Below are positions 1,134 to 20,178 of a DNA stretch of 64,000 nt, in pieces (the first letter of the stretch is position 1; each line of letters starts with the position of its first letter). Location: the NCBI RefSeq assembly GCF_003334765.1, contig NZ_QOWT01000001.1; one strand, written 5' to 3'. Made by a program: the position numbers and the translations under genes. Below the pieces are notes generated by a model that worked only from the letters and a program-made list of their open reading frames with translations, searched no databases and was not told where the DNA came from. The stretch comes from Escherichia coli (GTDB lineage: Bacteria > Pseudomonadota > Gammaproteobacteria > Enterobacterales > Enterobacteriaceae).

Positions 1134-1943
1134 ATGTCTTTTTCCTGTCCACTTTGCCATCAGCCTCTTTCGCGTGAAAAAAACAGCTATATCTGTCCCC
1201 AGCGACATCAGTTTGATATGGCGAAAGAAGGGTATGTCAATCTGCTGCCCGTTCAGCATAAACGGTCTCGTGATCCGGGCGACAGCGCGGAAATGATGCA
1301 AGCACGCCGCGCATTCTTAGATGCCGGACATTATCAGCCGCTGCGTGATGCAATTGTCGCCCAACTGAGGGAACGGCTTGATGATAAGGCCACGGCGGTG
1401 CTGGATATTGGCTGTGGTGAAGGGTATTACACACACGCATTTGCCGATGCGTTGCCCGAAATCACCACGTTTGGTCTGGATGTTTCGAAGGTAGCGATAA
1501 AAGCGGCGGCGAAACGCTATCCGCAGGTCACTTTTTGTGTCGCTTCCAGCCACCGTTTGCCGTTTTCCGATACCAGTATGGACGCCATAATACGTATTTA
1601 CGCGCCGTGTAAAGCAGAAGAATTAGCACGAGTAGTGAAGCCCGGCGGCTGGGTCATTACTGCCACGCCGGGACCGCGACATTTGATGGAGCTGAAGGGG
1701 CTGATTTACAATGAAGTACATCTTCATGCACCTCATGCAGAACAACTGGAAGGTTTTACATTACAGCAGAGTGCGGAGTTGTGTTATCCGATGCGTCTTC
1801 GCGGTGATGAAGCCGTCGCATTATTGCAGATGACGCCGTTTGCCTGGCGTGCGAAGCCAGAAGTCTGGCAAACACTGGCAGCAAAAGAAGTGTTCGACTG
1901 CCAGACGGACTTTAATATTCACCTCTGGCAGCGTTCTTATTAA
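1134..1943 (+). CDS. rlmA: 23S rRNA m1G745 methyltransferase RlmA
   Basis: 269-aa ORF; N-terminal Zn-finger CPLCHQPL...CPQRHQF; SAM-binding motif LDIGCGEG. Confidence 0.9.
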
Positions 1944-2506
1944 CCGTGGAAGTGCGTCCAGAGGATCTGGACGCCGATGCCGATCAGCACCAGCCCGCCG
2001 AGAATTTCCGCTTTTTTCCCAATAATTGAGCCGATAAAGCGACCAACCATCATCCCTAATGTTGACATAATCAAGGTTGCACAACCAATGGCCAATGCGG
2101 TCGCGATAATGTTGACCTGCAGGAAAGCAAGACCAACACCCACAGCCATGGCATCCAGGCTGGTGGCAATCGCGGTGGTTACCAGTAGCCAGAAACCGTG
2201 TCGACGGCGCGGCTCTTCATCTTCATCATCTGCGCCACGAAAACCCTCAATAATCATTCGCCCGCCGAGGAATATCAGCAGCACAAACGCAATCCAGTGG
2301 TTCCATTCAAGGACAAACCGGCTGGCTAACATGCCCATTCCCCAGCCGATCAGCGGCGTCAGGGTTTCGACGGCACCAAAAATAAGGCCGGTTCGCAATG
2401 CTTCAGAAAATTTCGGTTTATGGAGGGTGGCACCTTTACCGATTGATGCAGCAAATGCATCCATCGACATACCAAACGCAAGAAGAACAGTAGCAGTGAT
2501 ATTCAT
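1940..2506 (-). CDS. mntP: Manganese efflux pump MntP
   Basis: Polytopic membrane ORF; start set at [12 protein letters not shown] (188 aa) inside the 206-aa track ORF; stop codon overlaps the rlmA stop. Confidence 0.85.
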
Positions 2507-2740
2507 GACAATGTCCTGACCGGGGTATCCATAAAACACATCATCGCCCCCAGCAAACATGCATACATGAACAACAAGCCGTGATGGTTTTCGCGTTCAT
2601 GCAGGCATAGCGATTGATGTGCATATGGTCTCGCCTGACTGAAAGTATTCAGTCCGTACGTGCCACGTTTTGCAACGAGTATGTTGACACGTACATTTCC
2701 GGAATCTGGAAATCGGCTACTCCCCAAATGAGGGCGCAAC
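2507..2740 (-). promoter_or_regulatory. mntP 5' leader, expected to carry the yybP-ykoY Mn2+ riboswitch
   Basis: Long untranslated leader upstream of mntP; riboswitch assignment is from established knowledge of the E. coli mntP leader; fold not verified here, boundaries approximate. Confidence 0.5.
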
Positions 2741-2934
2741 CTTAACATATTTTGAGAATATAAAACAACTGTTGGAATATATTATTTCATTGCTTTATTG
2801 ATAACGATTTTCATTTGGATTTATATATCAATGAAACGTTAAAATAAATAACAAATAAGGGAAGAGGTAATATAGCCTAAGCTATGTCTGATTATTAAAA
2901 ATACACTAAACATAGCTTTGGCTAAATTCATAAC

Positions 2935-3393
2935 TTATTGAGTTGAAACGAGAAGCTTATAAATTTTTTCCAGATCGTCGATATTTCGAACGCGGATTAA
3001 CAGCCGACGCTGTTCTAATTGCATCACCAACACGCCATCTTCCGACAAGTTCATCGCTTTGATTCGGCTATATTCAATCCAGACATTGGCGAAGAAAAAA
3101 CCTTTTTGTTTAAAGATGATCTTCGGAACGCGGATCCAGAATATATAAAAACCCATCAGAGCCAGTGCGCTTAATAACCATGTCGTTATTAACGCACCAT
3201 GATTCGTGACGTTGTTATAGATAAGAATGACAATCAATCCGACGAAGATAACGCTATCGATGCGACCACGCCGGAGCAAAGGAATTGCCAGCAGGGTGGG
3301 GCCGTTACGGCGGGGCATGATGAACTGATCGTAGATCGCGAAGGCCAGGAGTGCGGCGATGAAAAGAATCAGTACCAGGTCCGTGATTGTCAT
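2935..3393 (-). CDS. yobD: Inner membrane protein YobD (DUF986)
   Basis: 152-aa hydrophobic ORF; recognised as K-12 YobD. Confidence 0.85.
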
Positions 3394-18447: not shown

Positions 18448-20133
18448 TTGAAGAAGGTTTGGCTTAACCGTTATCCCGCGGACGTTCCGACGGAGATCAA
18501 CCCTGACCGTTATCAATCTCTGGTAGATATGTTTGAGCAGTCGGTCGCGCGCTACGCCGATCAACCTGCGTTTGTGAATATGGGGGAGGTAATGACCTTC
18601 CGCAAGCTGGAAGAACGCAGTCGCGCGTTTGCCGCTTATTTGCAACAAGGGTTGGGGCTGAAGAAAGGCGATCGCGTTGCGTTGATGATGCCTAATTTAT
18701 TGCAATATCCGGTGGCGCTGTTTGGCATTTTGCGTGCCGGGATGATCGTCGTAAACGTTAACCCGTTGTATACCCCGCGTGAGCTTGAGCATCAGCTTAA
18801 CGATAGCGGCGCATCGGCGATTGTTATCGTGTCTAACTTTGCTCACACACTGGAAAAAGTGGTTGATAAAACCGCCGTTCAGCACGTAATTCTGACCCGT
18901 ATGGGCGATCAGCTATCTACGGCAAAAGGCACGGTAGTCAATTTCGTTGTTAAATACATCAAGCGTTTGGTGCCGAAATACCATCTGCCAGATGCCATTT
19001 CATTTCGTAGCGCACTGCATAACGGCTACCGGATGCAGTACGTCAAACCCGAACTGGTGCCGGAAGATTTAGCTTTTCTGCAATACACCGGCGGCACCAC
19101 TGGTGTGGCGAAAGGCGCGATGCTGACTCACCGCAATATGCTGGCGAACCTGGAACAGGTTAACGCGACCTATGGTCCGCTGTTGCATCCGGGCAAAGAG
19201 CTGGTGGTGACGGCGCTGCCGCTGTATCACATTTTTGCCCTGACCATTAACTGCCTGCTGTTTATCGAACTGGGTGGGCAGAACCTGCTTATCACTAACC
19301 CGCGCGATATTCCAGGGTTGGTAAAAGAGTTAGCGAAATATCCGTTTACCGCTATCACGGGCGTTAACACCTTGTTCAATGCGTTGCTGAACAATAAAGA
19401 GTTCCAGCAGCTGGATTTCTCCAGTCTGCATCTTTCCGCAGGCGGTGGGATGCCAGTGCAGCAAGTGGTGGCAGAGCGTTGGGTGAAACTGACCGGACAG
19501 TATCTGCTGGAAGGCTATGGCCTTACCGAGTGTGCGCCGCTGGTCAGCGTTAACCCATATGATATTGATTATCATAGTGGTAGCATCGGTTTGCCGGTGC
19601 CGTCGACGGAAGCCAAACTGGTGGATGATGATGATAATGAAGTACCACCAGGTCAACCGGGTGAGCTTTGTGTCAAAGGACCGCAGGTGATGCTGGGTTA
19701 CTGGCAGCGTCCCGATGCTACCGATGAAATCATCAAAAATGGCTGGTTACACACCGGCGACATCGCGGTAATGGATGAAGAAGGATTCCTGCGCATTGTC
19801 GATCGTAAAAAAGACATGATTCTGGTTTCCGGTTTTAACGTCTATCCCAACGAGATTGAAGATGTCGTCATGCAGCATCCTGGCGTACAGGAAGTCGCGG
19901 CTGTTGGCGTACCTTCCGGCTCCAGTGGTGAAGCGGTGAAAATCTTCGTAGTGAAAAAAGATCCATCGCTTACCGAAGAGTCACTGGTGACTTTTTGCCG
20001 CCGTCAGCTCACGGGATACAAAGTACCGAAGCTGGTGGAGTTTCGTGATGAGTTACCGAAATCTAACGTCGGAAAAATTTTGCGACGAGAATTACGTGAC
20101 GAAGCGCGCGGCAAAGTGGACAATAAAGCCTGA
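18448..20133 (+). CDS. fadD: Long-chain fatty acid-CoA ligase FadD
   Basis: Track ORF 18382-20133; start set at TTG 18448 (..KKVWLNRYP.., 561 aa) per remembered K-12 annotation; AMP-binding motif [12 protein letters not shown]. Confidence 0.9.
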
Positions 20134-20149
20134 GCGTTAAGTCAGTCGT

Positions 20150-20178
20150 CAGACGCCGGTTAATCCGGCGTTTTTTTT
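20150..20178 (+). terminator. Rho-independent terminator of fadD
   Basis: Stem cgccgg / ccggcg with loop ttaa, followed by an 8-T run. Confidence 0.75.

Follow-up and report, generated by a model that had tools for sequence, protein, structure and literature searches.

The DNA directly upstream of mntP, the gene for a Mn2+ exporter of Escherichia coli, can be read in two ways: as an untranslated leader folding into a riboswitch, or as an open reading frame of 81 codons which covers the same positions. Which of the two readings is right was examined by homology searches, folding, comparison with related loci and published experiments. Based on the evidence given below, positions 2507-2735 of the minus strand are almost certainly a non-coding mntP 5' leader of 225-229 nt with a yybP-ykoY riboswitch, while the 81-codon open reading frame is accidental and encodes nothing.

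In the window, i.e. the whole stretch of 64,000 nucleotides that was analysed, the order of genes on the minus strand is manZ, yobD (2935-3393), a gap of 428 nt and mntP (1940-2506), with rlmA convergent from the opposite strand. Positions 1940-3393 of the minus strand are identical (100%) to 1904801-1906254 of E. coli K-12 MG1655 (NC_000913.3). Of 5426 complete E. coli genomes, 5423 contain a 561-nt stretch around the mntP leader with 95-100% identity, and 5419 contain the leader itself. The region 2507-2748 (minus strand) makes up the 3' 242 nt of the yobD-mntP gap, directly upstream of mntP, and comprises the 5' leader of mntP and, upstream of this, 13-17 nt of promoter. Neither a CDS nor a riboswitch is annotated in this gap by RefSeq/PGAP or in the curated K-12 record. 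A terminator scan of 2300-3100 returned no site, with no intrinsic terminator between yobD and mntP. For comparison, 80 mntP loci were collected from other Enterobacteriaceae, 78 leaders were aligned, and 73 distinct aptamer segments were aligned separately. The two competing coding features are as follows.

1940-2506, minus strand: mntP CDS, Mn2+ exporter of 188 aa, ATG at 2506-2504 (RefSeq and curated K-12 record)
2503-2748, minus strand: 81-codon open reading frame from ATG to TGA, judged spurious; overlaps the promoter, the aptamer, the expression platform and the mntP start

The aptamer of the mntP leader

In a covariance-model search of the 601-nt stretch 2400-3000, run in permissive E-value mode, RF00080 (Manganese/yybP-ykoY) matched positions 2637-2733 of the minus strand with 41.6 bits and E = 7.6e-10. 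The minimum free energy (MFE) structure of a 116-nt segment was a four-way junction (z = -3.1), and fold z-scores in general were about -3.1 to -3.25. RNAalifold, applied to 73 distinct enterobacterial leaders, recovered P1, P1.1, P2, P3 with its ACAUACU internal loop, and P4. The elements of the aptamer are listed below.

about 2626-2726, minus strand: yybP-ykoY Mn2+ aptamer, four-way junction (RF00080 match, MFE fold, RNAalifold on 73 sequences)
2726-2724/2628-2626, minus strand: aptamer helix P1
2723-2718 (GGAGUA) and 2632-2629 (GAGA), minus strand: aptamer loop L1
2717-2715/2635-2633, minus strand: switch helix P1.1
2713-2708/2700-2695, minus strand: aptamer helix P2
2694-2685/2665-2656, minus strand: aptamer helix P3, with a distal stem at 2677-2674/2669-2666
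2684-2678 (ACAUACU), minus strand: aptamer loop L3
2654-2648/2643-2637, minus strand: aptamer helix P4

The hallmark motifs GGGGAGUAG, AACAUAC and GAGACC were unchanged across the 73 enterobacterial leaders. In L1, GGGGAGUAG occupies 2725-2717 and faces GAGACC at 2632-2627, G11-A18 and G104-C108 being invariant in the 73 sequences. The L3 internal loop CAACAUAC lies in the P3 leg at 2686-2679; it is unpaired in the MFE fold as well as in the consensus fold, and here T49-T55 and C57-T61 are the invariant positions (73 sequences). The alignment of the 73 aptamer segments also has GGGGAGTA, TCAACAT-CTCGT and G-GAGAC as invariant blocks. Compensatory double changes were detected by RNAalifold in 16 of the 33 aptamer pairs over the 73 sequences, and all seven pairs of P4 co-vary. 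Counted over the pairs of the aptamer, 98.5% of the cells were paired, as against 27-46% when the partners were slid by one to three columns, and none of 500 shuffles reached values as high as those observed. On the strand of mntP, the aptamer lies 120-220 nt ahead of the ATG of the gene, and the same layout was found in 77 of 77 related loci with enough flank. By the RF00080 E-value, the fold z-score and the strong covariation, the riboswitch signal in the mntP leader is far above chance.

The element is already known. It is the well-studied Mn2+ riboswitch of E. coli mntP, which ranks with the best-characterised riboswitches of this species, and little new biology is added here. Dambach et al. 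reportedly described this yybP-ykoY riboswitch of mntP (yebN) in 2015. The leader corresponds to 1905459-1905687 of K-12 MG1655, with which it is identical, and the four-way junction, the L1 and L3 nucleotides (A11 and A48) and the downstream gene are those of the known RF00080 element. For exactly this mntP sequence, Mn2+ binding was measured by isothermal titration calorimetry (ITC) and activation with lacZ fusions (PMC9603457). The identity of the element is settled by the independent covariation analysis and the experimental literature (PMC12153347, PMC9603457, PMC11647493). The riboswitch that the first-pass annotation had expected in the mntP leader is thus there.

The alx (SraF/PRE) riboswitch of E. 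coli is of the same family, has the same Mn2+ ligand and likewise regulates a putative Mn exporter at the level of translation (PMC12153347). It differs in being a three-way junction devoid of P2, with an intrinsic terminator and a response to alkaline pH (PMC12153347), whereas the mntP leader has a P2 backed by covariation and no terminator-like site.

Promoter, expression platform and control of translation

The mntP 5'UTR has a published length of 229 nt (PMC11647493), which puts +1 at window position 2735. In another study the conserved adenosines of L1 and L3 are numbered A11 and A48 (PMC12153347); this numbering would map +1 to 2731, the only position from which both fall on an A in the correct loops (2721 and 2684). 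Two -10 boxes ending at 2776 and 2869, returned by a consensus promoter scan, were set aside, as neither fits the published start sites. The features of the promoter region are the following.

2735-2768, minus strand: near-invariant promoter block TTGTTTTATATTCTCAAAATATGTTAAGGTTGCG (alignment of 78 leaders); contains the ATG of the 81-codon frame and extends to the transcription start (2735 or 2731)
2794-2818, minus strand: Fur-box-like site AATGAAAATCGTTATCAATAA, 14/19 match to the classical Fur consensus, about 65-85 nt upstream of the start site
2868-2889, minus strand: proximal MntR-box-like palindrome AGACATAGCTTAGGCTATATTA, about -137 to -158 from the transcription start, 17/22 match, one arm of inverted repeat I2
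2908-2929, minus strand: distal MntR-box-like palindrome GAATTTAGCCAAAGCTATGTTT, about -177 to -198 from the transcription start, 17/22 match, the other arm of I2

The palindromes were scored against 22 positions which we take to be the MntR box consensus, and are called MntR-box-like on that basis. Only 0.002 such matches are expected per shuffled upstream region, and at least one site of this kind was present in 61 of 77 related loci. The two palindromes are 40 nt apart and together form a 19-nt inverted repeat, which accounts for spurious microRNA-precursor matches on both strands in the permissive Rfam scan. The Fur-box-like site is weak when taken alone, with 0.33 such matches expected per shuffle; its AATCGTTATCA core is present in those genera whose aligned 260-nt stretch extends that far upstream. 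Both the MntR-box-like and the Fur-box-like sites recur in most related loci.

Downstream of the aptamer, the leader continues into the expression platform and the ribosome-binding site.

2529-2625, minus strand: expression platform, a long hairpin in which a CAU-rich 5' arm pairs with an AUG-rich 3' arm (MFE folds, alignment)
2546-2553, minus strand: platform G-run strand CUGGGGGC, resembling the aptamer L1 strand UUGGGG and able to pair with CCCCGG
2520-2525, minus strand: C-run strand CCCCGG, adjoining the Shine-Dalgarno sequence and nearly invariant in the alignment
2514-2517, minus strand: Shine-Dalgarno sequence AGGA, 7 nt upstream of the mntP ATG, read from the sequence

The platform has been described as one single helix (PMC12153347). 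Its apical part (approximately 2560-2610) differs in length between species. In K-12, 12 extra nucleotides at about 2579-2592 give GAAAACCATCACGG where other Escherichia have TT; of the 5426 complete E. coli genomes, 1679 have this loop allele, and the other E. coli, like the cryptic clades, have the short form. The inserted 12 nt are C-rich and G-poor and lie within the Rho-sensitive leader.

The C-run at 2520-2525 could pair either with the platform G-run or with the GGGG of aptamer L1. In the unconstrained MFE structure, the aptamer GGGG is paired with the CCCC of this strand. In the alignment, CUGGGGG (2552-2546) and CCCCGG (2525-2520) change together, with CUGGGG/CCCCGG in most genera replaced by GUUGGGG/CCCCAAC in Cedecea/Buttiauxella-type loci, and the pairing of the two platform strands thus appears to co-vary. 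The likeness of the platform G-strand to L1 and the GGGG-CCCC pairing of the MFE structure would fit a strand-exchange switch such as that proposed in PMC12153347. Most of the 78 leaders have CAGGAC or CUGGAC at the Shine-Dalgarno sequence, and the four Cedecea/Buttiauxella-type loci have GAGG. When P1/P1.1 was enforced and compared with the 3' strand held single, for both transcription start sites, thermodynamic folding gave no consistent change in the accessibility of the Shine-Dalgarno sequence and AUG. In vitro, no clear Mn-dependent change of reactivity was seen at the ribosome-binding site (PMC12153347).

Several published experiments bear on the function of the leader. Mn2+ activates 5'UTR-lacZ fusions transcribed from the heterologous T7A1 promoter (PMC9603457, PMC11647493). 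Co-transcriptional probing placed the decision point at about 205 nt, with L1/P1.1 invaded in the absence of Mn2+ (PMC12153347). Reporter and Rho assays showed Rho-dependent termination in the leader and early in the CDS, which the active riboswitch partly overcomes (PMC11647493). Among the Rho termination regions of a genome-wide bicyclomycin dataset is one at 1905535(+), with a Rho score of 3.47 and p = 1.9e-10 (PMC7815308, supplement 2); this coordinate is window position 2659, inside the mntP leader.

In the mechanism that best explains these data, mntP is transcribed from the conserved promoter with its upstream Fur-like and MntR-like sites, and the first 110 nt or so of the leader fold into the four-way-junction aptamer, in which L1 (GGGGAGUAG/GAGACC) and L3 (AACAUAC) form the metal site. 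With Mn2+ bound, the P1.1/L1 switch region remains docked, and without Mn2+ the downstream platform sequence invades P1.1/L1 once the transcript has reached about 205 nt. The Mn2+-bound form permits translation from the mntP AGGA-N7-AUG, and translation of mntP also counters Rho-dependent premature termination in the leader and early CDS. Fold, covariation, position and the missing coding signature come from this analysis; the Mn2+ response, the riboswitching point and the role of Rho come from published work. How the state of the aptamer leads to access of the ribosome, the last step, rests on published reporter data, and which strand would occlude the ribosome-binding site we infer.

A further layer of control could be added by a short upstream frame. 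Towards its 3' end the leader is rich in ATG (2568, 2544, 2541, 2532), and a platform frame translated in Escherichia from the AUG at 2544, 2541 or 2532 (13, 12 or 9 codons, with its UGA in AUGA) could bring ribosomes to the mntP start by coupling or protect the leader against Rho. A GGGGG run 2-5 nt upstream of AUG 2544/2541 is a possible Shine-Dalgarno sequence, the overlap of the stop with the mntP AUG is an arrangement typical of translational coupling, and the platform ATGs are conserved at the nucleotide level. These ATGs, however, are complementary to the hairpin's CAU-rich 5' arm, and MntP begins with a conserved Met-Asn (75 of 78 leaders have ATGAAT or ATGAAC), from which the AUGA follows. 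The curated K-12 record shows no small protein at the leader. Over the 78 leaders, the first platform ATG opens the frame that stops in AUGA in 33 cases, the mntP frame in 22 and the third frame in 23, so that neither a frame nor a peptide is kept, and on this distribution the hypothesis was rejected. A long ATG-containing leader, a stop over the main start and Rho sensitivity are likewise features of uORF attenuators and riboswitch-uORF hybrids such as the B12 riboswitch/uORF of M. tuberculosis (PMC11260477); unlike these, the mntP leader has no conserved frame or codon periodicity, and the start of its long open reading frame is outside the transcript. Translation of a frame of 9-13 codons in Escherichia and some Citrobacter, as a lineage-specific control layer, is therefore considered very unlikely. 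If it did occur, the ribosomes on it would open the region of the ribosome-binding site or block Rho, and the element would be a riboswitch-plus-uORF hybrid and not a pure switch by occlusion of the ribosome-binding site.

The 81-codon open reading frame

The first-pass annotation had placed an 81-aa open reading frame at 2503-2748 of the minus strand, upstream of and in frame with mntP. The frame exists, but it is not in phase with the gene: the distance from 2748 to 2506 is 242, which is not a multiple of 3, and its TGA (2505-2503) overlaps the mntP ATG (2506-2504) as ATGA. The frame which is in phase with mntP is another one, of 206 aa, from the ATG at 2560. With respect to length, the six frames of the 64-kb window contain 146 open reading frames of at least 81 aa, 67 of them of 81-120 aa. 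This is far above the gene capacity of 64 kb, and a length of 81 codons is thus no more than chance would give.

Relative to the published +1 (2735 or 2731), the ATG of the frame (2748-2746) is 11-17 nt upstream, inside the conserved promoter block. No Shine-Dalgarno sequence precedes it, the upstream sequence being AT-rich (ttctcaaaat). The T7A1-driven 5'UTR-lacZ fusions lack this ATG (PMC9603457, PMC11647493). Across 78 loci the open length of the frame was erratic, from 0 to 100 codons. Lengths of 88-100 codons were confined to E. coli and the cryptic Escherichia clades; in E. albertii the frame is open for 66 codons with the N-terminal part shifted, and in leaders from outside Escherichia the range was 0-90, with 0-20 codons in 36 of 72. 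The variable columns were spread over the three codon positions of the frame as 55/61/53 (p = 0.74), hence without periodicity, as compared to 38/14/74 (p = 3.7e-10), with the bias of third positions, in the first 81 codons of mntP from the same loci. In pairwise comparisons of the leaders, 260 of 293 runs of insertion or deletion were not multiples of 3, and the distance from GGGGAGTA to the mntP ATG varied from 164 to 223 nt, covering all residue classes modulo 3. The 12-nt loop polymorphism of the platform happens to keep the frame.

A search of the 81-aa peptide against NCBIfam gave no family match. An exact-sequence look-up returned a cluster of 114 members, all of them 'hypothetical protein' entries from automatic annotation. 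With a start outside the transcript, a frame that is not kept, no codon periodicity and no family match, the frame is spurious and the leader non-coding, as the first-pass annotation had suspected.

It might still be argued that the frame encodes a real small protein specific to Escherichia, translated from yobD read-through transcripts or from those of an upstream promoter so far unmapped. In favour of this are the open frame in E. coli and in the cryptic clades of Escherichia, the negative scan for intrinsic terminators between yobD and mntP, and the deposition of the peptide as the 114-member cluster. Opposed to this are the location of the ATG in the -10 region of the promoter, upstream of the mapped start site and lacking a Shine-Dalgarno sequence, the breaking of the frame in E. 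albertii and other genera in spite of conserved nucleotide sequence, and the absence of codon periodicity, of a family match and of any entry in the RefSeq and curated annotation. The action of Rho on the leader (PMC11647493; termination region in PMC7815308) speaks in addition against translation, as it implies that this stretch is untranslated. Such a protein can be given next to no probability.

An N-terminal extension of MntP from the in-frame ATG at 2560, which no stop separates from mntP and which would make a protein of 206 aa with part of the leader coding, has a negligible chance of being real and was rejected, since the open stretch upstream of the annotated ATG is erratic (3-86 codons between species), the segment 2560-2506 evolves with non-triplet indels, the annotated start is where the conserved AGGA-N7-ATG and the conserved MNIT N-terminus are found, and RefSeq and the curated K-12 record both place the start at 2506.

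In Enterobacter/Lelliottia-type leaders (L018, L024, L026, L028 and others) the conserved platform ATG (GGGGGCAGTGATG...) is in the mntP frame with no stop between. From its position in these loci, an N-terminal extension of MntP by 12 codons would be formally possible there, unlike in E. coli.

The gathering threshold and the annotation of the leader

In comparison with the known E. coli mntP riboswitch, the only discrepancy is a bioinformatic one, namely the score below the Rfam 15 gathering threshold and the silence of RefSeq. The curated gathering score of RF00080 is 45 bits in Rfam 15, which is a curation cut-off and not a structural feature. As the 41.6 bits of the match are below it, a default scan misses the mntP riboswitch: over the whole window at gathering thresholds, no RF00080 was returned, only a cspA-type match and sroD. 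The covariance-model search of the minus strand which the first-pass annotation had proposed, with the lack of a significant hit as refutation, therefore has a divided outcome, the match being significant by E-value and absent at the gathering threshold. At default settings this refutation misfires.

The same threshold divides the family. Twelve orthologous enterobacterial leaders scored 35.5-57 bits against RF00080, seven of them above 45 and five below. Those below (35.5-44.2 bits; loci L006, L021, L028, L048 and L073) are from E. albertii, Salmonella diarizonae, Enterobacter hormaechei, Kosakonia sacchari and Klebsiella pneumoniae. With the copy of the RF00080 model used, the alignment stops after P4 and E. 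coli lacks about 75 of the consensus positions, which lowers the score. This copy of the model has a long insertion resembling expression-platform sequence, and its consensus ends after P4.

Two other RNA matches were recorded elsewhere in the window. The Rfam cspA thermoregulator (RF01766) matched cspC and its leader at 583-1043 of the plus strand with 135.5 bits; the match is mostly coding sequence of a cold-shock protein and is therefore not evidence of a thermosensor. The gene is called cspE in NZ_CP032667.1 (RefSeq) and cspC in the curated K-12 record. At 20092-20177 of the plus strand, a full-length sroD sRNA was found with 115.2 bits (gathering score 50), one position off the consensus.

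For the annotation of E. coli, the consequence is that a validated riboswitch, placed just under the Rfam 15 gathering score, is absent from RefSeq/PGAP, while a chance open reading frame over it has been deposited many times as a 'hypothetical protein'. Pipelines which equate the lack of an Rfam match at the gathering threshold with the lack of an RNA element would mislabel the mntP leader as coding.
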